64,000 bases of DNA from Ignavibacteriales bacterium. Lineage in GTDB: Bacteria > Bacteroidota > Ignavibacteria > UBA10030. Of the stretch, positions 49,574-64,000 are shown one piece after another. Numbering within the stretch: the stretch's first letter is position 1; each line of letters starts with the position of its first letter. Both the position numbers and the translations under genes were made by a program. The stretch lies in NCBI GenBank assembly GCA_026390575.1, contig JAPLFR010000015.1, positions 107,101 to 171,100 on the forward strand, read 5' to 3'. The notes beneath the pieces are model-generated. The model made no database searches and was not told the origin of the DNA. It worked only from the letters and a program-made list of their open reading frames with translations.

Positions 49574-49801
49574 ATGCCAACATATGAATTTCATTGTAAA
49601 GAATGTGGGTACACATTTGAGTCTTTCTTGACAGTTGCGGATAAGGAACGAAAGGACCGCGAAGCTTCTATCACATGCGAAAAGTGTGGAAGCAGTAAGA
49701 TTGAACAGGTATTCGGTGGCTTTTCAATCCTCACTGGTTCTCAGGTGAATCAAAAGACCGGTGGTGGTTCAAGCTGCTGTAGTGGCGGGAATTGTTGCTG
49801 A
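49574..49801 (+). CDS. FmdB-family zinc-ribbon protein with Cys-rich tail (…GGGSSCCSGGNCC)
   Basis: MPTYEFHCKECGY…CEKCG zinc ribbon (two CxxC pairs). C-terminal Gly/Ser linker, then CC…CC. RBS AGAGGA. Confidence 0.7.
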   Translation: MPTYEFHCKECGYTFESFLTVADKERKDREASITCEKCGSSKIEQVFGGFSILTGSQVNQKTGGGSSCCSGGNCC

Positions 49802-49808
49802 GTGCGAA

Positions 49809-50111
49809 ATGGCGACAGTCCACATTTTTGGTTTGCCGATGAAAGCATGCGATCCAGCCAAAACGTGGAAAGCAGCGGCAGACCTGATTGGCCGCCGGCT
49901 TGCATCGAGGTATGGAGAGAATGTCCGCACGGTGTATGTTGAATTATATTCACCGGAATCGTTCAAGTTTGAGAATATTATGAATTTGCTCAAGGAAGGT
50001 CAGGCTCCTCCTTTTGTAACTGTCGATGGTAAGCTCATTCAGAATGGCGGTAAACTTTCAGAGCGTACTATTGCACAAGAGCTTGAACGAATACTTACAG
50101 CCGAAGAGTAA
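49809..50111 (+). CDS. Hypothetical thioredoxin-fold protein, ArsD-like/DUF with a single N-terminal Cys (…GLPMKACDP…)
   Basis: About 100 aa. C-terminal half …PPFVTVDGKLIQNGGKLSERTIAQEL resembles the ArsD/glutaredoxin-like fold pattern (…LPLLLLDGE…G.YP…EL). Start taken at ATG 49809; the ORF extends upstream to 49761. Confidence 0.45.
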   Translation: MATVHIFGLPMKACDPAKTWKAAADLIGRRLASRYGENVRTVYVELYSPESFKFENIMNLLKEGQAPPFVTVDGKLIQNGGKLSERTIAQELERILTAEE

Positions 50112-50138
50112 ATGATAAAAGATGGAGATCAATACAGT

Positions 50139-50540
50139 ATGCATACGACTGAAAAGCAGAAGGAAGTAAGCACAATAGATATTAATAATGCTGCGCTTAA
50201 ACTTGGCAATGCCATTGTTGAAACGGCAGAGTATCAAGCATATAGTGATGCAGAAAAACGTTTCCAGAACGACCTCCAAGCTCAGGCATTGCTTAAAAAA
50301 CATGAGGAAGCTCAGCAAGCGCTTCAATTGATGTGGCGATTAAAAAGTTCAACCGAAGAGGCAATGCAGCAGGTCAGACAAATAAAGAAATTAATCGAGT
50401 CAAATCAGACGCTCACGGCATATTTTGCTGCTCAGGAAAATCTAGTTCCATTGCTCAGAGAATTGAATGAATTTATCAGCGAAAAGCTCAATATGGATTT
50501 TTCCGGATTGTCCAAACCCCAGCGTGGGTGCTGTGGATAG
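50139..50540 (+). CDS. YlbF/YmcA-like (UPF0342) helical protein ending in …RGCCG
   Basis: Helical about 130-aa protein. Pattern …A..L…AI…AEYQAY…A…F resembles the Com_YlbF family. C-terminal CCG. Start uncertain (50112 or 50139). Confidence 0.5.
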   Translation: MHTTEKQKEVSTIDINNAALKLGNAIVETAEYQAYSDAEKRFQNDLQAQALLKKHEEAQQALQLMWRLKSSTEEAMQQVRQIKKLIESNQTLTAYFAAQENLVPLLRELNEFISEKLNMDFSGLSKPQRGCCG

Positions 50541-50548
50541 AAGAGGAG

Positions 50549-50926
50549 ATGACAATGTTAAATACACAACTTCAAACTGATGCCGAACTGTTTGTGAATG
50601 CTCTGATAAATTCCCACGAGATGAAAGCCTTTGTGAAAGCGAAAGCTGAATTTCAAGGAAATCCTGAATTGCGCGAAGTCCGGAAGCAGTTCGGTGAGAA
50701 ACAGACCATGGCCCAATCAAAGCAATCTCATGGAACAATTACACAAGAAGAAATTGACGATGTGCGCGCACTTCAAAAAAAACTCAACTCGCACCCTGTC
50801 ACATCGACCTATACTCAAACACGTCAAGTAATGGTGAACCGATTGCATGAATGCAACGATGTACTGAGTAAAATATTGAGATTTGATTTTGCCTCTGCAG
50901 CTGCGCCACCATCGTGCTGTGGATAG
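50549..50926 (+). CDS. YlbF/YmcA-like (UPF0342) helical protein, paralog, ending in …PSCCG
   Basis: Same architecture as 50139-50540 (…FVNALINSHEMKAFVKAKAEF…). C-terminal SCCG. Start uncertain (50528, 50549 or 50555). Confidence 0.5.
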   Translation: MTMLNTQLQTDAELFVNALINSHEMKAFVKAKAEFQGNPELREVRKQFGEKQTMAQSKQSHGTITQEEIDDVRALQKKLNSHPVTSTYTQTRQVMVNRLHECNDVLSKILRFDFASAAAPPSCCG

Positions 50927-50961
50927 GAGTAGCTAATGTTTGATTATGAAAACAATATTAA

Positions 50962-51798
50962 ATGGAGAATCAACTGATGGTACGTTACTTGAATTCTAAA
51001 AACATTGGATCAATAATGATCGTCTTTGCCCTAGTCACCATTTTAATCTGTATGAGTGATTCTGCTAATTCACAAACGGCAAATCGTTCAAAAACTCAAA
51101 AGCAGACAATGGGGAAAAGTTCTTCTGCACCCGAATCAGCAAATAAGGCAATTGCACAGGCTCAGCAAAATGGCGATTACCTGTATATAATGTTTTATGA
51201 AAAGAAAGACGATTCTTACCAAGAAATGCGGAAGACCGTTCAGGCCTTCGTAAAAAAATCGGTCAAACCGATAAAGACTTATGAAGCCATGACAACTGAT
51301 AGCAAGGAATCGGATGTGATTCAAAAATATGGCATTAATCAAGCGCCACTTCCCATTCTCCTTGTATTCGCACCCAACGGTGCGATAACGGGCGGCTTCC
51401 CTCAAAAAGCCACGGAGAAACAGCTTACAGATTGTATGGTCCCAAATTTGATTATGAATATTTTAAAAACAGTTCAGTCAGGTAAAATCGCATTAATATT
51501 GCTTCAGAATAAGAATACAACGTTAAATACCGAAGTGGAAAATGTCGCTGTAGAATTCTCTAAAGATACACGTGTCGCTGGCTATGTGGATATCATTAAG
51601 CAGGATCCGAGTGAGGGTAATATAAAAGACTTTCTCACGCAGTGTAAAGTAGAGAACACATCAACAGAAGCCTCTACCGTTATGATTGTCCCGCCGAATA
51701 AAATTGGCGGTGTATTTAAGGGAAAAATAACCAAGGAAACTCTTATTGCTGGTTTAGCCTCGTGTTCCGGTGGTAGTTGCTGTGGTTCCAAGAAGTAG
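50962..51798 (+). CDS. Membrane-anchored protein with two tandem thioredoxin-like (non-CxxC) domains and tail …CSGGSCCGSKK
   Basis: N-terminal signal anchor (IGSIMIVFALVTILICMS). Internal duplication of about 90 aa (…YLYIMFYEKKDD…LPILLVFAPNGAITGGFP… / …IALILLQNKNT…TVMIVPPNKIGGVFKG…). C-terminal Cys tail. Confidence 0.6.
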   Translation: MENQLMVRYLNSKNIGSIMIVFALVTILICMSDSANSQTANRSKTQKQTMGKSSSAPESANKAIAQAQQNGDYLYIMFYEKKDDSYQEMRKTVQAFVKKSVKPIKTYEAMTTDSKESDVIQKYGINQAPLPILLVFAPNGAITGGFPQKATEKQLTDCMVPNLIMNILKTVQSGKIALILLQNKNTTLNTEVENVAVEFSKDTRVAGYVDIIKQDPSEGNIKDFLTQCKVENTSTEASTVMIVPPNKIGGVFKGKITKETLIAGLASCSGGSCCGSKK

Positions 51799-54456: not shown

Positions 54457-56307
54457 ATGAATAACACAAAATATATTTTCTTCAGCGGTAAAGGTGGCGT
54501 AGGTAAAACAACGATGGCTTGTGCAACAGCCGTTCACTATGCAAATGAAGGTAAAAGAACCTTAATAGTTACGACCGATCCGGCGAGTAATCTGGCCGAT
54601 GTCTTTGAAACAGAGATTGGACATAAAATTACACCCTTGATGAATAATCTTTGGGGAATGGAAATTGACCCGGATAAAGCGACTGAAGAATATCGCGAAA
54701 GAATACTCTCGCCCATGCGAGCCGTTATGCCCGAAAGCGTCATGGTGGTCTTGGAGGAGCAATTTAATTCTCCATGCACAACGGAAATTGCCTCATTCGA
54801 TCGATTCGTCGATTTCATGGTCGCTGAAAAAGAGGGCAAAGGCGAGAAGTATGACGCGGTCATTTTTGACACTGCACCTACCGGACATACAATCCGCCTT
54901 CTTGAATTACCTGTGGATTGGAGCAAGCACATCGAAGAAAGCGCAAAAGGTGAGGGCAATACTTGCATCGGTCCCGTTGCCTCTATCCAGGAAAACAAAG
55001 TGAAGTATGATGAAGCTACTCGACTTCTCGGTGATGCAAAGAGAACGACCTTTATGTTTGTTCTACAGCCTGAAGAAACGTCCGTCTACGAGACAAAACG
55101 ATCATCAAATGAATTAAAGGAAATCGGTGTTAAAAATGTTGAATTGATTATTAATGGTATACTCCCGAAGGCAGTATGCGAGCATCCGTTCTTCAAGAGC
55201 AGATATGAAATGCAGCAGAAGTATATGAAAATCATTCAGTCCGATTTTCCGCTGAAGATCAGAAAAATGTATCAGCGCGACGGTGAGATTAAAGGCCTGG
55301 AAAGAATACTAAATATTGAGCGGGACTTATTTGCCAATTCCACTGATCAGACCTACTCCCTCGGTAATGGCGAATTGGTAAAAACACACTTCAAAGAATT
55401 TGAAGCAGATTCAATTGACGAAATAATTAAGCCAAACGGCAAAACCAAATCAATATTCTTCACGGGAAAGGGTGGAGTCGGGAAAACTGTAATTTCTGTG
55501 GCGACAGCGTATAAATTCGCATCAGAAGGCCACAAGACCCTTCTTTTAACCACCGATCCGGCTTCGCATATTGGCGAAGTGCTCGAACAGCATATCACTG
55601 ACAAAATTCAAAAGGTGGAGGGCGTTCCCCATCTTTGGTCTGTCATCGTAGACCAGGAAAAAGCGACGATAGAATACAAGCAAAGGATTATTGAAGAATC
55701 AAAATCCAAGTATTCTGAAGATATGATGATAGCCATTAAAGAAGAACTGGAATCCCCTTGTACGGAAGAAATGGCGGCATTCGATAAATTTATGAGCTAT
55801 GTGGAAAGTGATGAGTATGACTTTGTTATTTTCGATACAGCTCCAACCGGACATACTCTGCGATTACTTGAACTTCCATTTGATTATAGCGATCAGGTCA
55901 GCCTGATGGTGACGACGAATCAAAAAAGTCAGGATGCGAAATCAGTCACTCAAAAAAGGTTTGATAAAGTTATCGCAAGGATGAAAGATTCCGAACGGTC
56001 CATATTCTCATTTGTTGTCTATCCGGAATCAACGCCGGTCGTTGAGGCCTACCGCGCAATGCTTGATTTGAAAGAAGCCGGGATTCAAACTCAGTTCATT
56101 GTTGCGAATCAAGTGCTTGATCCGGAATACTGCACAAATAAATATTTCATCAAAAGAAGAATAATGCAGGAAAAATACCTTGCAGAAATAAAGGAAAGGT
56201 TTCGATTGCCGGTTACCGTGATGCCCCTTCTGGAATCGGAAATAAAAGGTATTGCAATGATTCAAAAGGCATCGGATTTGCTATTCAGGAACAATGTCCT
56301 AGCGTAG
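54457..56307 (+). CDS. arsA: Arsenite-transporting ATPase ArsA (tandem A1-A2 halves)
   Basis: Two P-loops (GKGGVGKTTMA and GKGGVGKTVIS), two DTAPTGHT signature motifs, and conserved Cys (…EGNTCIGP…). Confidence 0.95.
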   Translation: MNNTKYIFFSGKGGVGKTTMACATAVHYANEGKRTLIVTTDPASNLADVFETEIGHKITPLMNNLWGMEIDPDKATEEYRERILSPMRAVMPESVMVVLEEQFNSPCTTEIASFDRFVDFMVAEKEGKGEKYDAVIFDTAPTGHTIRLLELPVDWSKHIEESAKGEGNTCIGPVASIQENKVKYDEATRLLGDAKRTTFMFVLQPEETSVYETKRSSNELKEIGVKNVELIINGILPKAVCEHPFFKSRYEMQQKYMKIIQSDFPLKIRKMYQRDGEIKGLERILNIERDLFANSTDQTYSLGNGELVKTHFKEFEADSIDEIIKPNGKTKSIFFTGKGGVGKTVISVATAYKFASEGHKTLLLTTDPASHIGEVLEQHITDKIQKVEGVPHLWSVIVDQEKATIEYKQRIIEESKSKYSEDMMIAIKEELESPCTEEMAAFDKFMSYVESDEYDFVIFDTAPTGHTLRLLELPFDYSDQVSLMVTTNQKSQDAKSVTQKRFDKVIARMKDSERSIFSFVVYPESTPVVEAYRAMLDLKEAGIQTQFIVANQVLDPEYCTNKYFIKRRIMQEKYLAEIKERFRLPVTVMPLLESEIKGIAMIQKASDLLFRNNVLA

Positions 56308-56357
56308 CGTATAAATGCTGACTCAAGTTTAGTAAACATAATAAGGTTGGAAATAAA

Positions 56358-56780
56358 ATGAAAATACTCATTCTCTGTACCGGTAATTCTTGCCGAAGCC
56401 AGATAGCGGAGGGATTCCTCAAGTCATTCGATCCAAACTTGGAGGTATATTCTGCCGGCACGAACCCCGCGCAAAAGGTTCATCCCAAAGCGATTCAAGT
56501 GATGAAAGAAGTTGGCATCGATCTCTCATCGCACAAAACCAAACTCGTGGATCAATTTCTAAACGATTCTTTTGATTATGTGATAACGGTATGCGATCAC
56601 GCAAAAGAAACCTGTCCAGTTTTCATCGGCAAAGTCACACATCGTCTGCATATGGGATTCGACGATCCCGCAGTAGCAACCGGAACAGAAGAGGAAGTTC
56701 TTTCTGTATTCAGAAAAGTACGCGACCAAATAAAACATAATTTCAACTCTTTTTATACTAAAAATCTAAAAACGAATTAA
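56358..56780 (+). CDS. arsC: Arsenate reductase ArsC, LMW-PTPase type (second copy)
   Basis: [21 protein letters not shown]-loop, and [10 protein letters not shown]. Confidence 0.85.
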
Positions 56781-56791
56781 GGGCTATCGCA

Positions 56792-57838
56792 ATGGAACAA
56801 GTATCGAAAAGGTTATCATTCATTGACAGGTATCTGACCCTGTGGATATTCATTACAATGTTTTTGGGGGTAGCAGCCGGATCTATCTTCCCCGACATTG
56901 CTGGTTTCTGGGATTCGTTAAGCTCCGGCACAACAAACATCCCCATTGCAATCGGATTAATTCTCATGATGTATCCTCCGCTTGCAAAAGTGAAATATGA
57001 AGAACTGCCTGTCGTCTTCAAAAATGTGAAACTGCTTTCATTATCATTAATCCAAAACTGGATTGTCGGTCCGTTGGTTATGTTTATTCTTGCACTTGTG
57101 TTCTTGCCTGATAAACCAGAGATGATGATTGGTGTCATTCTCGTAGGACTTGCGCGTTGCATTGCCATGGTACTGGTGTGGAATGATCTGGCAAAAGGCG
57201 ATTCTGAGCTTGCCGCCGGGCTTGTTGCCTTCAACGCTATCTTTCAAGTATTTCTCTATTCAGTATATGCCTACTTTTTTATCACCGTATTACCACCGCT
57301 TTTTGGATTCAAAGGAGCACTTGTAGAAATATCTATTAGGGAAATTGCTGTTACTGTTCTTATCTATCTTGGCATACCATTCTTTGGCGGAATGATAACC
57401 CGCGCAAGCCTGATTAAGATTAAAGATAAAGAATGGTATCACAAAACATTTGTCCCGAAAATTTCGATTCTTACTCCCATTGCATTGCTCTTTACCATTT
57501 TTGTGATGTTCTCGCTCAAAGGTGAAAAGATTGTCGAATTGCCGCTTGATGTCGTAAGAGTTGCTATCCCATACTTGTTTTATTTTGCCGGTATGTTTTT
57601 TATTACTTTCTTTATTGCAAAGAAGATGGGAGCTGGTTATGAAAAATCAACAACTACGGCATTTACCGCCGGCAGTAATGATTTTGAATTAGCCATTGCT
57701 GTGGCCGTTTCGGTGTTCGGAATAAATTCACAAGCAGCATTTGCAACCGTGATTGGTCCCTTGGTGGAAGTGCCCGCGCTTATAGGGCTGGTAAATGTTG
57801 CACTGAGGTTTAGGAAAAAATACTTTGCAGTACAATAA
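56792..57838 (+). CDS. acr3: ACR3-family arsenite efflux transporter
   Basis: 10-TM BART-superfamily protein. N-terminus [20 protein letters not shown] and conserved Cys in TM4 (…[12 protein letters not shown]…). Confidence 0.9.
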
Positions 57839-57915
57839 ATTGCTCAATTATCACTCAATCTGGATCAATGACGGGGAGTAGTATAGTACTCGATATTTCC
57901 ATATCTTTTAAGTAT

Positions 57916-58536
57916 ATGAAAATAGAACAAATTCAGAATGTTGATAACGAATCGGAACTGGTTCAGAAAGCGCAAAATGGAGATCAACGCGCGTTTTCAT
58001 TGCTGGTAAAGAAATACGAATCAACTGTCTATAGCTTTGCCTACAAAGTGTGTCGCAATGAAGAAAAGGCTGAAGAGACTCTTCAAGATACATTTGTGAA
58101 TGTTTATCGGAAACTTGATCAGTTCAATGGAAAGGCGAAGTTCAGTACGTGGCTTTATCAGATCGTTACGAATAATTGTCTGATGAAGAGAAGAAAAACT
58201 AAGCTGGACAAATCATCTGTTTCAATTGAATCTCCAGAGAACGCACAGGAAGATTCAGAACTTCAAGGCGATGGAGCACCGCTTCAGACACTTGTTTCGT
58301 TAACACAGACGCCGCAGGATGAAGTGGTGAACAAGGAACTCCGTGAGCTTCTCGACACTGCTATTCTGAAATTACCAATGGAACAGCGGATTGTTTTCAT
58401 TTTGCGCGATGTTGAAGGACGATCTTCGGAAGAAGCTGCCAAAATTCTCAAGGTTTCTATTCCGGCAATAAAATCCAGGCTTCGTCGTGCACGCGTGTTC
58501 TTACGCGAGCAATTACAGGAGTATATGGAAGTATGA
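57916..58536 (+). CDS. RNA polymerase ECF-type sigma-70 factor
   Basis: Sigma region 2 (…LVQKAQNGDQRAFSLLVKKYES…FSTWLYQIVTNNC) and region 4 (…EQRIVFILRDVEGRSSEEAAKIL…). Confidence 0.8.
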   Translation: MKIEQIQNVDNESELVQKAQNGDQRAFSLLVKKYESTVYSFAYKVCRNEEKAEETLQDTFVNVYRKLDQFNGKAKFSTWLYQIVTNNCLMKRRKTKLDKSSVSIESPENAQEDSELQGDGAPLQTLVSLTQTPQDEVVNKELRELLDTAILKLPMEQRIVFILRDVEGRSSEEAAKILKVSIPAIKSRLRRARVFLREQLQEYMEV

Positions 58537-58790
58537 AAACGAAAACTGTAAACAAACTACATTGTAGCGAAGTGGCAAAATATGTCTGCGAGAATCTGGA
58601 CGAACATCTGAATTCCAGAAAATGCCGCGCAATCAGAAAGCATCTTCAAACCTGTCCAAAATGCACGTCGCAATTAGAGTCACTTAAAAAAACCGTATTT
58701 CTTTATCGAAATTGCCCTGTTCCTGGCATTTCAGAACAATCCCACAAGAAGTTAATGGCTGGTTTGTCATTGATGATAGCGAAGAAATAA
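58533..58790 (+). CDS. Putative zinc-finger anti-sigma factor
   Basis: Overlaps the sigma stop (ATGA). HxxxCxxC motif (HLQTCPKCTSQ) and an additional Cys (HCSEVAKYVCE). Confidence 0.6.
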   Translation: MKTKTVNKLHCSEVAKYVCENLDEHLNSRKCRAIRKHLQTCPKCTSQLESLKKTVFLYRNCPVPGISEQSHKKLMAGLSLMIAKK

Positions 58791-58936
58791 TTACCTGCTG
58801 TAGTTGCAGCATTCCGCTCAATTTCTACTTCTCATAATTCTTTTTCTTTTAGATGAACCCTTTTCGCCCAACTCTGCATCCTATTACTGAACACTTGAAT
58901 TAGAACTATGGATTCTCCAATATTGAAAATTATATT

Positions 58937-59119
58937 ATGGCACTTACAATAAATTCTTATGTATGTCCGCAGAACCATCGTTGTCCTATCTTGAACATTT
59001 GTCCCATGGAAGCAATATCTCAAGAAGGTAAAGGCTTGCCTGTTATTGATGAAAGCAAATGTGCTGAATGTATGGATTGTGTCAGTTATTGTCCCATGCA
59101 AGCTGTCCAACAAAATTAA
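58937..59119 (+). CDS. Small 2x[4Fe-4S]-type ferredoxin-like protein (60 aa)
   Basis: CPQNHRCPILNICP and CAECMDCVSYCP motifs. Confidence 0.55.
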   Translation: MALTINSYVCPQNHRCPILNICPMEAISQEGKGLPVIDESKCAECMDCVSYCPMQAVQQN

Positions 59120-59196
59120 AAGCGGTTCTTATTTACAACGTCAAGGCAGTGGAAGGACAACCGCGATAGCAAATGCGACAAAGCATTGTTGTCAAA

Positions 59197-59424
59197 TCAC
59201 AACTGCTGTTTCTTACGTTCCCCAATTGTCAAGATAAGTCCCATACCTGCGCCATATGCAGTGCTTATCCAGGGATTGCGTGTGATTGGACATGTGCCGG
59301 TACTGCATCCGATATAGTAATAGTATGCGTATCCTCCTAAAGCCCCGATAAGAGAAAACAGTATCCGCTTTCGCCAGATTGATCCTGCCAAGTATTCTTT
59401 CAGCCGAAGAATGAGTGATTTCAT
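59197..59424 (-). CDS. Small membrane protein with GCSTGTCP (CxxxxC) motif
   Basis: 75 aa and two TM helices. The Cys pair sits at the membrane interface. Translationally coupled to trxA upstream on the same strand. Confidence 0.45.
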   Translation of the reverse strand: MKSLILRLKEYLAGSIWRKRILFSLIGALGGYAYYYYIGCSTGTCPITRNPWISTAYGAGMGLILTIGERKKQQL

Positions 59425-59801
59425 TGAACTACCGCTGCTTCTTGGTTGGATATTATCAAATCACTGTCAATAATTCTTTTCAATTCGTTTTTCGGCAAGG
59501 CACCCAACGCCATCTTCGGCTCTCCATTGAGCGGAATAAAGAGCAGCGAGGGAATACTTTGAATACCGAACATGCCTGCAAGCTCTTGCTCTTCTTCCGT
59601 ATTCACTTTATAGAAATTTACCTTCCCGGCATATTCTTTGGAAAGTTCATCAATGACCGGACCTACCATACGGCACGGCCCGCACCACGGCGCCCAAAAG
59701 TCCACGAGTGCTGGAAGATTCCCCTCATATTTCCACTCTTTATTCTTTTCAAAATTAAAGACTTTATCGCGGAAGGTTTCTTTGTTGAGATGTTCTGACA
59801 T
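59421..59801 (-). CDS. trxA: Thioredoxin
   Basis: WAPWCGPCRMVGPV active site. RBS AGGAGA. Confidence 0.9.
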   Translation of the reverse strand: MSEHLNKETFRDKVFNFEKNKEWKYEGNLPALVDFWAPWCGPCRMVGPVIDELSKEYAGKVNFYKVNTEEEQELAGMFGIQSIPSLLFIPLNGEPKMALGALPKNELKRIIDSDLIISNQEAAVVQ

Positions 59802-59966
59802 GGTTGTTCTCCTTTGTTAATTTATTACATTATCTTTGTTACAGATAAGATGATGGTGAAATGAAAACGATTCATCTTTCTTAGAAAAAATTTTTAATAC
59901 ACGAATCCTTTCCAGTCTGCCGGCATCCTATCTATAAACCGTTTACATACATAAAGGAGCAATATC

Positions 59967-60176
59967 ATGAAACGAAATATGGGTTCCATCGACAAAGGTG
60001 TTCGTATTCTTGTTGCTGCAGTTATAGCGGTTCTGTACTTTACAGGTCAAATCAGTGGTACACTAGCCATAATTTTTGGTATCCTTGCAGTCATATTTCT
60101 ATTGACAAGTGCAATCGGGTTCTGCCCGTTGTATCTGCCGTTGAAGCTTTCGACAATAAAAAAGAAAGATGCTTAA
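59967..60176 (+). CDS. DUF2892 (YgaP-like) small membrane protein
   Basis: 69 aa, two TM helices, conserved …GFCPLY… motif. RBS AAGGAG. Confidence 0.6.
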   Translation: MKRNMGSIDKGVRILVAAVIAVLYFTGQISGTLAIIFGILAVIFLLTSAIGFCPLYLPLKLSTIKKKDA

Positions 60177-60408
60177 AGGAAACCAAGTGCAGCAACGAAT
60201 CATTGTCAGAAATGTGTTGAAGGGAATTGGTTTCCTTGGGATCGTTCTCTTTCTTCTGGGAATCCCCAGGAATTATTTTTTATTGATCGGTTCAGGTGCT
60301 GCACTCTTTCTTGGCCTCACAGATTTCGGCAGGCAGTGTCCTTTGATTCTTTCTGTTCAATATCATCTTAACAGGATGAAATCAAAGAGACAGTCTCAAG
60401 TTATCTAA
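60169..60408 (+). CDS. DUF2892-like small membrane protein (paralog)
   Basis: 79 aa, two TM helices, …GRQCPLI… motif. Confidence 0.45.
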   Translation: MLKGNQVQQRIIVRNVLKGIGFLGIVLFLLGIPRNYFLLIGSGAALFLGLTDFGRQCPLILSVQYHLNRMKSKRQSQVI

Positions 60409-60494
60409 CGTATTGGACGGTTCTTGTTTTTATCACTTTTCTCTTGTTAATTGACAAGGGAATATTCACCAGCGATAAAAAGGACTCCATAACT

Positions 60495-60857
60495 ATGGGA
60501 AATATAATTTCATATCTGCTTTTAGGTTTAGCCGCTGGCATTCTTAGCGGACTTGTAGGGATAGGCGGCGGCATTTTGTTTGTTCCCGCACTTGTATTTC
60601 TTTTTGGTTTTTCACAACAGCAGGCACAGGGAACGACACTTGCACTTCTCGTTCCTCCAATTGGTCTTCTTGCAGCATGGACATATTATCAACACGGTTT
60701 TGTGGATTTAAAGGTAGCAGCATTTATCGCAGCTGGCTTTATTGTCGGCAGCTTACTCGGTGCGCGCTATGCGATAGGAATATCAAACGATATGCTCGGA
60801 AAAATATTTGGTGTATTTCTTGTAGCTGTTGGACTGAAGATGATTTTTGGAAAGTAA
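60495..60857 (+). CDS. TauE/SafE (DUF81) family anion exporter, half-size (4 TM)
   Basis: …LLGLAAGILSGLVGIGGGILFVPALV… is the characteristic G-rich TM1 motif. About 120 aa, so presumably functions as a dimer. Confidence 0.65.
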   Translation: MGNIISYLLLGLAAGILSGLVGIGGGILFVPALVFLFGFSQQQAQGTTLALLVPPIGLLAAWTYYQHGFVDLKVAAFIAAGFIVGSLLGARYAIGISNDMLGKIFGVFLVAVGLKMIFGK

Positions 60858-60864
60858 TTGAAAA

Positions 60865-61119
60865 ATGATACAGAATGAAGAGCTCATCAACGAGCAACAA
60901 TTTCTGCACCTCAATCAGATACGACAATCTGAACTCATTACGAAACATTGCTCTAGCATTGAAAAGAGCATACGCGATGCTCGATCCAAAGTAGAAGCGG
61001 AACAGATTGCAAGCAAAGCATATAATAAATTTGAAAGTGAATGTACAAGCAGCATTGTCCGTTTGGCACTTGCGCAATACATGCAAGCTAAAGTAACGCA
61101 CTATTGGAGTAAGAAATAA
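60865..61119 (+). CDS. Hypothetical protein
   Basis: 84-aa ORF starting 8 nt after the TauE stop. No recognisable motif. Confidence 0.35.
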   Translation: MIQNEELINEQQFLHLNQIRQSELITKHCSSIEKSIRDARSKVEAEQIASKAYNKFESECTSSIVRLALAQYMQAKVTHYWSKK

Positions 61120-61137
61120 TTTTATTCGAGAGACGAT

Positions 61138-61680
61138 ATGCACGAACGCAGATTTCATGGAGAAATAGAACGCCTTCGAACCCCGCAACGCCTTGCACTC
61201 CTCGAAGTAGAACGGGTTGTCGACCTGTGTCTTGAAGGAATTCAAGCGACAAATGTGTTGGATGTGGGAACAGGAAGCGGAATATTTGCAGAAGCATTTT
61301 CAAAAAGAGGAATGAATGTAACAGGGATTGATCCGAATCCAGAAATGTTAAAGGCAGCAAAGGACTTTGTCCCTGCCGGAAAATTTCAACAAGGTACAAT
61401 TGAGGAAATACCATTTAAAGACAAATCAGTCGATCTCGTTTTCTTGGGCCATGTCCTGCACGAATCGGACAATATTGTTAAAGCACTTTCCGAATCCAAA
61501 CGTGTAGCAAAGCAAAAAGTCTGCGTCCTTGAATGGCCATACAAACAGGAAGAAAGTGGCCCACCCTTAGAACACCGTCTTAAATCAGAAGAAATTCTTA
61601 CAGCTGTAAAACAAGCGGGCTTCTCTTCTGTGGAAACAATTCAGTTACTGCATATGGTGTTGTTTAGATTAATCATCTGA
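61138..61680 (+). CDS. Class I SAM-dependent methyltransferase (Methyltransf_11-like)
   Basis: Motif I VLDVGTGSGIFAE, motif post-I (…NVTGIDPNPEML…), motif II (…VDLVFLGHVLHE…). Confidence 0.75.
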   Translation: MHERRFHGEIERLRTPQRLALLEVERVVDLCLEGIQATNVLDVGTGSGIFAEAFSKRGMNVTGIDPNPEMLKAAKDFVPAGKFQQGTIEEIPFKDKSVDLVFLGHVLHESDNIVKALSESKRVAKQKVCVLEWPYKQEESGPPLEHRLKSEEILTAVKQAGFSSVETIQLLHMVLFRLII

Positions 61681-61855
61681 TTGCCTAACGCTGGTAAAAT
61701 CATGCGTTAACTCACCCAACCTACATCTTTCCATTTTTTGACAATACGCTCTAAACGGATTTCAATATCTGCATAAAATTTAATGCGATTTGCTAATAAT
61801 TCTCTTTTTTCGAGGTTTTTACACGGTACAATAGTTGCTAATTATAAATGTAACT

Positions 61856-62320
61856 ATGAAAACCGAGACAAAAGAATCGACAGTCTATTCTATTGGTAAA
61901 GTTGCCAAATTGCTTGGGGTGTCAGCCCAAATACTCCGGCTTTATGAAGAACGCGGATTAATGCTCATTCAAAAAAGTGCTGGCAATCAGCGTATCTACA
62001 CGGAAGATGATATAGAACGTATTCGATGTATTCGCAACGCCATCAACGAACAGAAGATCAGTATGGAAGGTATTCGTAAGATTCATTCTCTGATACCTTG
62101 CTGGGAAATGGTGAGTTGTCCTCCGGAAAAACGAAATGACTGCCTTGCATACGGCTCACACAATGCCGGGTGCTGGACCTTCGAACAAAAGAACACCGAT
62201 TGTGCAACACGCGAATGCCGGTTATGTAAAGTGTATCAACTTTCATCTGATTGCGGGAATATAAAGAAACTGATTCAACGATCACTCAGTGTCTCTGAGC
62301 GAAAAGATTCTTCCTCTTAA
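61856..62320 (+). CDS. MerR-family transcriptional regulator with Cys-rich C-terminal domain
   Basis: HTH YSIGKVAKLLGVSAQILRLYEERGL. C-terminal CWEMVSCP…CLAYGSHNAGCW…CATRECRLC. The ORF tool's TTG start at 61835 is replaced by ATG 61856. Confidence 0.75.
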   Translation: MKTETKESTVYSIGKVAKLLGVSAQILRLYEERGLMLIQKSAGNQRIYTEDDIERIRCIRNAINEQKISMEGIRKIHSLIPCWEMVSCPPEKRNDCLAYGSHNAGCWTFEQKNTDCATRECRLCKVYQLSSDCGNIKKLIQRSLSVSERKDSSS

Positions 62321-62338
62321 AACAAGGAATCCATTCAC

Positions 62339-63913
62339 ATGAATAAAACGATTATCAGCGTCGGGCTTGGTGTTCTTGTGTTTTCGTTGACTGTCATGTT
62401 GACTCTATCTGATCATGGCACACCAACAACACCGCTTACGACCTTGCGCAAGAAATACCGTCAGAAAGAAACACCCTCTGTCGACCACACACAATTTTCG
62501 CAGCTCAAAAAACATTTTTCCAAACCGCAGGAAGTCACTTTTGCATGCATTGCTTGCCATAACGAACGCCACAAAGAAGTGATGCAATCCAGTCATTGGA
62601 ATTGGGAACGACAGGAGTATGTGGAAGGAAAAGGAATACGAACGCTCGGCAAGAAAAATATTCTGAACAATTTTTGTATCGGCATTTCCGGCAATGAACA
62701 AAGCTGCAACAAATGTCATATTGGATACGGCTGGGGAGATGAGAAATTTGATTTTAAGAATCCGCTGAATGTTGACTGCCTTGCATGCCATGATAATAGC
62801 AACAAATACATAAAAGCAGTTGGCGGAGCCGGCATGCCCGACGCTTCGGTGAATTTAGCAAATGTCGCTCAGCATGTCGGAAAACCGATGCGCGCGAATT
62901 GCGGAACATGCCATTTCTTCGGCGGCGGTGGAAATAATGTGAAGCACGGCGACCTTGAAAACGCGCTCTTCGATCCCTCGCGCGATGTCGATGTGCATAT
63001 GGCGTCGGACGGAGAAGATATGCAGTGCGTGGATTGCCATACCGCACGCAAACATCAGATGCTCGGCAAGATGTATTCCGTTTCTTCCATGAACCGCAAC
63101 CGCGTCGAATGCGAGCAATGCCATACAACCCTTCCGCATGCAGATGATGTTCTGAATAAGCATACGTTAAAAGTGGCCTGCCAGGCCTGTCATATTCCTG
63201 AATACGCTAAGGTCAATCCAACTAAATTGCATTGGGATTGGTCAACAGCGGGAAAATTAAAGGACGGAAAGCCGTACGAAGAAACTGATTCTAACGGCGT
63301 CGATGTGTATATGTCCATCAAAGGGTCATTTGTTTGGGGCAAGAATCTGAAACCGGAATATATCTGGTTCAACGGAACCGCATCGCACTATTTGGTTGGT
63401 GATACGATAAACCCTTCGGCACCGGTAAAACTCAATACGTTATATGGGAGCTATGATGATCCTGATTCAAAGATTGTTCCGGTGAAAATACATCGTGCGA
63501 AACAAATTTATGACCTGCAGAACAAATACCTTATTCAGCCGAAAACCTTTTCAACAAAAAAAGGGGATGGTGGATACTGGAAAGAGTTCGATTGGAACAG
63601 GGCATCTGAAGAAGGAATGAAATTAATTAACCTTCCCTATAGCGGTAAGTACGGTTTTATAGAAACTGAAATGACTTGGCCGGTGAATCATATGATTTCA
63701 CCGAAAATCAAAACCGTGCCGTGTGCAGAATGCCACACACGCAATAATGGGCGAATCGCTTCTCTTACCGGATTCTACATCCCTGGAAGAGATTATATTT
63801 CCTGGGTAGAATATCTTGGAACTGGATTAATTCTGATCACACTTGCTGGTGTGCTGATTCATGGCGGTGTGCGCATAGCAGCATCGCGAAAGCAGAAGGA
63901 GAAAAATACATGA
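62339..63913 (+). CDS. Octaheme c-type cytochrome, membrane-anchored
   Basis: Eight CxxCH motifs (CIACH, CNKCH, CLACH, CGTCH, CVDCH, CEQCH, CQACH, CAECH), an N-terminal signal anchor, and a C-terminal TM helix. Confidence 0.85.
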   Translation: MNKTIISVGLGVLVFSLTVMLTLSDHGTPTTPLTTLRKKYRQKETPSVDHTQFSQLKKHFSKPQEVTFACIACHNERHKEVMQSSHWNWERQEYVEGKGIRTLGKKNILNNFCIGISGNEQSCNKCHIGYGWGDEKFDFKNPLNVDCLACHDNSNKYIKAVGGAGMPDASVNLANVAQHVGKPMRANCGTCHFFGGGGNNVKHGDLENALFDPSRDVDVHMASDGEDMQCVDCHTARKHQMLGKMYSVSSMNRNRVECEQCHTTLPHADDVLNKHTLKVACQACHIPEYAKVNPTKLHWDWSTAGKLKDGKPYEETDSNGVDVYMSIKGSFVWGKNLKPEYIWFNGTASHYLVGDTINPSAPVKLNTLYGSYDDPDSKIVPVKIHRAKQIYDLQNKYLIQPKTFSTKKGDGGYWKEFDWNRASEEGMKLINLPYSGKYGFIETEMTWPVNHMISPKIKTVPCAECHTRNNGRIASLTGFYIPGRDYISWVEYLGTGLILITLAGVLIHGGVRIAASRKQKEKNT

Positions 63914-64000
63914 AACGTGAATATGTCTATAAATCCTTCGAACGCTTCTGGCACTGGATGCAGGCACTATTGATTATCTTTCTCGGGTTCACGGGATTTG
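63910..64000 (+). CDS. b-type cytochrome membrane subunit (FdnI / Ni-Fe hydrogenase cytochrome b-like), 3'-partial
   Basis: MKREYVYKSFERFWHWMQALLIIFLGFTGF: the RFxHW motif and first TM helix typical of this family. ATGA overlap with the octaheme cytochrome gene. Confidence 0.55.
   Translation, partial: MKREYVYKSFERFWHWMQALLIIFLGFTGF

Follow-up and report, generated by a model that had tools for sequence, protein, structure and literature searches.

A MerR-type regulator with a predicted two-CW domain heads an octaheme cytochrome operon and, in related genomes, other sulfur-respiration operons

What is reduced by an octaheme cytochrome c that is encoded next to a b-type cytochrome, and which signal is read by the regulator encoded in front of it? 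These questions are raised by the end of a 64,000-nucleotide stretch of DNA (hereafter the window; contig JAPLFR010000015.1, positions 107,101 to 171,100) from an Ignavibacteriales metagenome-assembled genome (MAG), where genes for a MerR-family regulator, an octaheme cytochrome of the OTR family and a cytochrome b follow one another. A sequence-only reading of the window had described these three genes at the edge of an arsenic/thiol island, and its three assignments are confirmed by the open reading frames, by PF13411, by eight CxxCH motifs and by PF01292. The OTR enzyme and its b-type partner are already known and annotated. The unstudied part is the regulator with its two-CW domain, which makes the locus a lead rather than a discovery: what is new here is a MerR variant that carries a predicted two-CW sensor domain and consistently marks sulfur-respiration operons. 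All features of the three genes and of their promoter region given below by coordinates lie on the plus strand of the window.

The regulator, here called MerR-CW, is encoded at positions 61856..62320 (154 aa, ATG start; MCX6122333.1, a MerR family regulator according to NCBI). A TTG codon is found upstream of this ATG, at 61835, and the homologues do not start there. The winged helix-turn-helix (wHTH) domain (residues 11-76, positions 61886..62083) is matched by PF13411 (E 1.3e-17) and PF00376 (E 4.9e-10) and contains an extra cysteine, C58. In the full-length AlphaFold2 (AF2) model (pLDDT 92.8), this domain superposes on CueR, MtaN and RacA with a root mean square deviation (rmsd) of about 1.3 A over about 63 residues, GlnR being matched too. 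The match to solved MerR structures is confined to the wHTH, and full-length superpositions give rmsd values above 10 A. Behind the wHTH, the model has the short helices of a Cys domain (82-130) and a single longer helix at 133-150, with no long coiled-coil helix directly following the DNA-binding part. SoxR, a MerR-family [2Fe-2S] redox sensor and as such the precedent for an Fe-S MerR protein, likewise has a MerR-type wHTH followed by a Cys-based sensor. However, its CX2CXCX5C motif is absent from MerR-CW, as is, in the AF2 model, the long helix right after the wHTH. Membership in the SoxR family is rejected, with a TIGR01950 score of 37.9 bits against a cut-off of 116.9.

The cysteines of the C-terminal part (C82, C88, C96, C106, C116, C121, C124, and C133) are all invariant in 14 relatives having 53-87% identity, so that the eight-Cys module noticed in the sequence-only reading is real and conserved. 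It corresponds to residues 81-134 (positions 62096..62257), with the pattern PCW-x4-C-x7-C-x9-CW-x8-C-x4-C-x2-C-x8-C. The NCBIfam model of the two-CW domain, NF045718, gives only 10.2 bits on MerR-CW (E 0.75), below its cut-off of 35. Despite this, the module is classified from its sequence as a divergent two-CW domain because profile-profile alignment (hhalign) with bona fide two-CW domains gives a probability of 98.4% (E 1.1e-14). NF045718 and MerR-CW share the pattern CW-x4-C-x7-C-x9-CW...CxxC-VY, whereas the MerR-fused subfamily lacks an insert of about 8 residues that separates the second CW from the CxxC, and has an extra C-terminal cysteine, C133. No variation is seen across 68 domain sequences at C82, W83, C88, C96, C106, W107, C121, and C124, and only the MerR branch has C116 and C133.

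The distribution of the domain was obtained with a profile of the 69 C-terminal residues, searched against 1.8 billion representative proteins (E<=1e-3). The 229 matches are mostly MerR fusions of 145-170 aa. The remaining ones are stand-alone proteins of 60-90 aa, small proteins with a membrane anchor, proteins with receiver or HD domains, and chemoreceptors in which the domain occurs once or twice at the C-terminus. Among the proteins retrieved, P0061, P0101, P0144, and P0158 all pass NF045718, and the chemoreceptor copies reach scores of up to 93 bits with this model. P0061 and P0101, which are methyl-accepting chemotaxis proteins, carry tandem two-CW domains at their C-termini, while the domain is N-terminal to a receiver domain in P0145 and C-terminal to an HD-type phosphodiesterase-like protein in P0127. 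Its presence on chemoreceptors, receiver and HD-type proteins suggests that two-CW is a portable sensor module. The domain is predicted to be cytoplasmic, since its fusion partner is either a DNA-binding domain or, in chemoreceptors, the cytoplasmic end of the protein. Such a location and six to eight invariant cysteines point to reactive thiols or to a metal or cluster site. Redox control through MerR-CW, as the sequence-only reading had envisaged, is plausible. A Zn-Cys4 site that senses sulfane sulfur is described for PerR and offers a precedent (PMC9952342). Our literature search returned no paper under the domain name "two-CW," nothing relevant on MerR proteins with octaheme cytochromes and tetrathionate, and nothing relevant on the MerR family and sulfane sulfur. 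A PDB fold search with the two-CW domain of the model gave no match.

Which genes does such a regulator precede? With one genome per species, 33 loci carrying MerR-CW relatives were collected, mostly from Ignavibacteriota/Bacteroidota MAGs according to record titles, with few exceptions. The relatives stem from fen metagenomes, and a complete Ignavibacteriota chromosome, OY969585.1, carries the locus. MerR-CW is encoded directly upstream of an OTR operon in 16 of the 33, of a Phs-like operon in another 16, and of an SQR cluster in the last one. The 16 Phs-like loci encode a PhsA/PsrA-like molybdopterin subunit, a four-cluster FeS protein, an NrfD-type membrane subunit, two YeeE/YedE halves and a rhodanese; the SQR locus encodes an SQR-like flavoprotein, DUF1641, DsrC and DsrE. 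The Phs-like operons resemble those of the thiosulfate/polysulfide reductases PhsABC/PsrABC in their molybdenum, FeS and NrfD-type subunits, and such genes are not in the window. Their substrate is left unassigned because the PhsA-like subunit scores 511 bits, below the equivalog cut-off of 694. In two loci, L019 (465-14408) and L021, a single merR-CW gene stands between both kinds of operon, with OTR, cytochrome b, YeeE and YeeE/rhodanese upstream on the same strand and PhsA-like, FeS, NrfD, YeeE, YeeE and rhodanese downstream. A 645-aa multiheme cytochrome precedes the OTR operon of L019; it is ExtM-like, a type known from selenite/tellurite-reduction operons (E 8e-66, below cut-off).

More distant members of the family were looked up singly. 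They precede genes for SQR-like proteins (two cases), DsrM/DsrK-like proteins (two cases), a molybdoenzyme with a TAT signal, a cytochrome bd oxidase, an eight-heme cytochrome and a FadL-like porin. In the cytochrome bd case (L040, 514-4224), the distant relative P0029 heads the genes of subunits I and II and of a Tll0287-like protein, and a TGGCA-N6-CTG element is found upstream together with an ATCTG...CAGAT repeat. Cytochrome bd is a sulfide-tolerant oxidase. With YeeE/TsuA/YedE-type matches and rhodaneses among the operon genes, the target genes are strongly biased to inorganic sulfur chemistry, and the MerR-CW family is strictly linked to sulfur-respiration operons. Comparable targets are controlled by the sulfide/persulfide-responsive regulators FisR and BigR, which act on sqr-pdo-tauE and yeeE-yedE-pdo2 operons (PMC7315123). 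FisR, a sigma-54 activator, and BigR, of the ArsR family, thus resemble MerR-CW in the type of gene controlled, although they belong to unrelated protein families.

In the window, the regulator gene is followed after 18 bp by otr (62339..63913, 524 aa; MCX6122334.1, annotated by NCBI in the Ignavibacteriales MAG as a tetrathionate reductase family octaheme c-type cytochrome). The stop codon of otr overlaps the start codon of the cytochrome b gene as ATGA at 63910. The window holds the first 30 codons of the latter (63910..64000; PF01292, E 3.4e-5), its end cutting a dihaem-type product of 213 aa. Window positions 54798-64000 (9203 bp) are found with 100% identity on a public contig, L048, which extends 7.9 kb further. 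There, otr is followed by genes for the 213-aa cytochrome b, a 172-aa Sulf_transp protein of the YeeE/YedE type and a 404-aa fusion of Sulf_transp and Rhodanese, then by a stem-loop with a T-run, beyond which the genes are unrelated. The last three genes of the set are spaced within about 10 bp of one another. The end of the window is therefore the 5' part of a five-gene operon made up of merR-CW, otr, the cytochrome b gene, a yeeE/yedE-like half and a second such half fused to a rhodanese. In 15 of the 15 related loci with sufficient downstream sequence, these five genes recur, each overlapping the next or lying very close to it. A search of the 64-kb window against Rfam gave no RNA family at or above its gathering score.

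The octaheme protein is an ordinary and, by its sequence, unambiguous OTR-family member. It matches TIGR04315 over profile positions 1-440 of 440 with 599.5 bits (cut-off 375), and the only solved structure matched in the sequence search is 1SP3, the OTR of Shewanella (E 1.5e-134; 49% identity across 405 aligned columns). It has exactly eight CxxCH motifs, at 70, 123, 147, 188, 230, 258, 281, and 462, collinear with those of 1SP3 and of 14 orthologues. The sequence-only reading had considered, as the opposite case, a housekeeping NrfA-type enzyme with a CxxCK heme. No CxxCK occurs in the protein or in the 14 orthologues, and the PDB search returned no NrfA, ONR, HAO or MccA chain at E<=0.01. 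With matches to TIGR04315 and 1SP3 only, identity as NrfA, ONR, MccA or HAO is rejected. Inspection of distal-ligand residues, which the same reading had recommended, gives a consistent picture. Lys105 (codon at 62651..62653) aligns with Lys56 of 1SP3, in a GKKN motif, and Cys113 (62675-62677), the one cysteine outside the CxxCH motifs, aligns with OTR Cys64; both residues are invariant across 15 orthologues, and Lys105 is so in 16 sequences. In the Shewanella enzyme, the active-site heme has an uncommon ligand, Lys56, which lies remote from the heme motif, and Cys64 is nearby. These roles were reportedly described by Mowat and colleagues in 2004. The lysine ligand is thus predicted to be retained in the window protein.

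Outside its heme domain, the protein has a hydrophobic N-terminal segment (about residues 1-25) and, according to hydropathy and alignment, a C-terminal transmembrane helix (residues ~492-511, positions 63812..63871) followed by the basic tail RIAASRKQKEKNT. The TIGR04315 match stops at residue 480, so that helix and tail lie beyond the family profile. Compared with the OTR of Shewanella oneidensis MR-1, the order of the eight CxxCH motifs and the Lys56/Lys105 and Cys64/Cys113 pairs are the same. In contrast, the Shewanella protein is soluble and periplasmic and has no C-terminal helix, whereas the window OTR has this helix and a dedicated PF01292 cytochrome b, and belongs to an operon with YeeE/YedE halves and a rhodanese. 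Electrons are thought to reach the Shewanella enzyme via CymA and periplasmic cytochromes (PMC12949373).

The full-length cytochrome b known from L048 is matched by PF01292 with E 1.9e-29 in an orthologue. The membrane-anchored octaheme cytochrome with a cytochrome b that the sequence-only reading had put forward is therefore found in both its parts. The C-terminal helix of OTR and the overlapping PF01292 gene suggest that the two proteins form a membrane-bound, quinol-oxidizing two-subunit reductase. In the passages available of the account of the Ignavibacteriae bacterium Ch128a MAG, an Otr-cytochrome b561 cluster is interpreted as a terminal reductase fed by quinol (Kadnikov et al., 2020, PMC7509429). 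Hence, the combination of Otr and a membrane cytochrome b has already been published within the same phylum, and the enzyme part of the operon is of a known kind. Those passages make no mention of a regulator, of transporter or rhodanese genes, or of a promoter element, and the likeness is by description (PMC7509429). The novelty that had been attached to the octaheme enzyme is therefore not upheld: this is a plain member of a known family, annotated at NCBI, and its cytochrome b561 pairing is in print.

The region upstream of merR-CW carries a conserved cis-element, CGGTACAATAGTTGCT (61824..61839), with a GG-N10-GC spacing, which ends 16 nt before the ATG. Of 42 loci, 38 have the motif GG[CT]A-N6-[TC]TG in the 120 nt that precede merR-CW, compared with 4.2% of random windows. 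In 27 non-redundant contexts, the conservation is T22 G27 G27 C23 A27, six variable positions, then T22 T27 G27. The separately transcribed OTR operons of L019 and L021 have the element too. Over ~540 kb, the strict motif occupies an intergenic upstream position before merR-CW genes only (10 of 10). Judged from the letters, it is spaced exactly like the -24/-12 elements of a sigma-54 promoter, in which GG and GC are set 10 nt apart within TGGCAC-N5-TTGCW. Caution is required because the C at -12 is kept in 12 of the 27 contexts (the window element keeps both GG and GC), because no GAFTGA signature of enhancer-binding proteins was found in the 64-kb window or in loci L001-L038, and because the motif stands before merR-CW genes only. 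The literature search gave nothing on Ignavibacterium with sigma-54. In the window, a sigma-70-like promoter can also be read at 61818..61848, where TTTACA (61818-61823) and TATAAA (61843-61848) are separated by 19 bp. The cis-element fills this spacer, which is the classic MerR geometry: MerR operators are dyads set in sigma-70 promoters with a spacer of 19-20 bp. Under this reading, transcription would start at or next to the ATG and produce a leaderless mRNA. A TATAAN hexamer is kept at a fixed distance in many AT-rich loci and is absent in the higher-GC loci L039, L040, L045, and L046; more generally, the TTTACA/TATAAA hexamers are not kept in higher-GC loci. A scan of positions 61000-64000 for canonical sigma-70 promoters found sites no more numerous than chance. 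A Bacteroidetes-type -33/-7 reading of the element was dropped, as its spacing does not fit.

The element is weakly palindromic. Clade-specific inverted repeats begin at its TTG and run downstream, such as AGTTGATA-N8-TATCAACT, AATCTGT-N11-ACAGATT, and TCTACATTTT/AAAATGTAGA. They can alternatively be read as what is expected for an operator co-evolving with its protein. Further upstream, about 45 bp from the element, a 16-bp palindrome, TTGCTAAAATTAGCAA, is perfect in L001 (9915-9930), L008, and L009. Alignment of the upstream regions indicates that the window keeps its left half only, as the degenerate TTGCTAATAATTCTCT (61790..61805). Palindrome and cis-element share the half-site TTGCTAA. 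We give close to an even chance to an operator placed within a MerR-type long-spacer promoter, and regard a sigma-54 promoter with an overlapping operator as a serious candidate that still falls short of even. FisR acts in the context of a -24/-12 promoter; MerR-CW is devoid of an AAA+ domain, and its gene neighborhood encodes no enhancer-binding protein. A long shot would combine these elements: two-CW might be a new cofactor-bearing sensor (Fe-S or Zn-thiolate) of reactive sulfur or redox state, common to MerR regulators, chemoreceptors and response-regulator proteins, which in MerR-CW would gate, with no AAA+ enhancer-binding protein involved, a promoter of the -24/-12 type whose -12 element is relaxed. 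If true, this would be a case of a MerR-type protein controlling sigma-54-like transcription.

The arsenic/thiol genes reported upstream of the block are real. They encode an ArsP-like permease, ArsA, an ArsC of the LMW-PTP type, Acr3, thioredoxins and DsbD_TM. Close relatives keep the ECF-sigma, anti-sigma, ferredoxin, thioredoxin, YgaP-like, TauE-fragment and methyltransferase genes along with the merR-otr block, whereas DUF134 and Nitro_FeMo-Co genes are found where the window has ars genes (window 54457-57838 compared with L001 1-6200). The ars segment therefore looks like a local insertion or replacement. Since the ars genes are not kept beside the merR-otr block in relatives, the arsenic association is local to the window genome, and an arsenic linkage of the cluster is rejected.

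Two further observations concern this neighborhood. The TauE/SafE match at window positions 60444-60857 (137 aa) covers the C-terminal half of the profile only (129-237 of 237), and the piece is just 92-120 aa long in relatives as well; the gene may be split or decayed, or may encode a bona fide protein of half the usual size. Inside the arsenic/thiol island, a run of small proteins with cysteine-rich CC(G) tails is encoded at 49574-51798, between an ArsR-like gene (48913-49305) and a MacB-type ABC transporter. It comprises a 75-aa zinc-ribbon-like protein ending in GGGSSCCSGGNCC, a 278-aa protein ending in SCSGGSCCGSKK, and two helical paralogues (142 and 132 aa) that end in RGCCG and PPSCCG. 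These tails may bind a metalloid or a metal.

How could the five genes work together? The reading that we favor, with moderate confidence, is a quinol-linked OTR sulfur-oxyanion reductase operon under thiol- or metal-based control by MerR-CW. The four-helix cytochrome b would oxidize menaquinol and hand the electrons on to the octaheme OTR, which would sit in the periplasm, tethered to the membrane by its C-terminal helix. Through the eight hemes, the electrons would reach the Lys-ligated heme, where a soluble inorganic sulfur oxyanion would be reduced in the periplasm. Sulfur oxyanions are the best-supported class of substrate because the operon continues with YeeE/YedE-type halves and a rhodanese. 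The reaction could be the conversion of tetrathionate to thiosulfate that gave the family its name, with sulfite as a live alternative, also suggested by recent Shewanella genetics (PMC12949373). The split YeeE/YedE transporter would then import the sulfur product, for instance thiosulfate, and the fused cytoplasmic rhodanese would strip or transfer its sulfane sulfur. At its own promoter, MerR-CW would bind the cis-element and the inverted repeat and autoregulate the operon. The two-CW domain, with six superfamily-invariant cysteines and two more, would hold a metal or Fe-S center or reactive thiols, whose state would shift with reactive sulfur species or with the redox state and switch transcription.

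Several points weigh against this reading. A 2026 genetic study found no tetrathionate phenotype for an otr deletion in Shewanella, activities in vitro favor nitrite and hydroxylamine, and the physiological role of OTR is unresolved even there, twenty years after the structure (PMC12949373). All the relatives are MAGs. The cofactor and the signal of the Cys domain are pure inference, and the inverted repeat, which is the candidate binding site of MerR-CW, is strong in some clades only and weak in that of the window. Finally, the targets, anaerobic reductases together with cytochrome bd, also fit an oxygen or redox sensor. MerR-CW could accordingly follow an FNR-like logic, probably with an Fe-S cluster in the two-CW domain, and switch on anaerobic or microaerobic respiratory modules in general, sulfur compounds not being the signal. 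All the targets are indeed respiratory or electron-transfer systems (OTR, molybdenum reductase, cytochrome bd, eight-heme cytochrome, DsrMK-like), two-CW domains on chemoreceptors would suit energy taxis, and SoxR is at hand as an Fe-S precedent. This possibility is nevertheless doubtful, as the sulfur bias is heavy, with YeeE and rhodanese in every complete OTR or Phs-like locus, plus SQR, DsrC and DsrE. Moreover, among the loci examined, MerR-CW precedes no operon for a nitrate, nitrite or fumarate reductase, and by simple comparison the cysteine spacing fits no known Fe-S motif. A different objection takes the enzyme itself to be mainly a detoxifying reductase of nitrite, hydroxylamine or another N-oxide, functionally separate from the downstream sulfur genes. 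We consider this unlikely. The preferences of characterized OTRs in vitro and the Shewanella result speak for it, but neighboring genes overlap or are almost contiguous, their order is conserved in each of the 15 complete loci, and the same regulator family heads operons of the thiosulfate/polysulfide-reductase type. In addition, tetrathionate induced otr of an acidobacterial MAG in sediment microcosms (bioRxiv 10.1101/2020.10.01.322446).

Two other explanations are less probable still. MerR-CW might be an HspR-like stress repressor in which the cysteines hold structural zinc only, its position before respiratory genes having no sensory meaning. HspR is the best NCBIfam match of the N-terminal domain (E 5.7e-16), and JGI labels the relatives "MerR/HspR." However, the score on NF047375 is 58.3 bits, far under the cut-off of 105, which puts HspR membership out, and no chaperone gene (dnaK, clpB, groEL) is present among the called neighbor genes at the loci examined. 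Chemoreceptors and receiver proteins carry the Cys domain too, as is usual for sensor modules, and the linkage to sulfur operons holds in 33 of 33 loci, so that a stress repressor would be very surprising. The least credible idea is that the cluster belongs to the arsenic island and handles or reduces a metalloid oxyanion (arsenate, selenite, tellurite). The adjoining arsA, arsC, acr3 and ArsP-like genes of the window genome favor it, as do the selenium ties of YedE-type proteins (NF033796 matches) and the ExtM-like cytochrome of L019. Yet close relatives keep the merR-otr block with no ars genes at the same position, no ArrA/ArxA-type enzyme is present and the OTR-family membership leaves no ambiguity. 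Thus, from the sulfur or metalloid oxyanion reductase that had been proposed for this locus, the sulfur half is best supported, by the YeeE/YedE halves and the rhodanese of the operon, and the metalloid half is not supported.

The operon described here hard-wires an OTR to a putative quinol-oxidizing cytochrome b, a thiosulfate-type transporter and a rhodanese, under a regulator family that is common to thiosulfate/polysulfide-reductase-like and SQR/DsrC/DsrE clusters. The company of the OTR gene is comparative evidence for a role in the sulfur cycle, and the operon is a defined system for testing it. As for two-CW, it is a widespread Cys-rich domain with a database model, and its strict place before sulfur-respiration operons gives it a first testable functional context.

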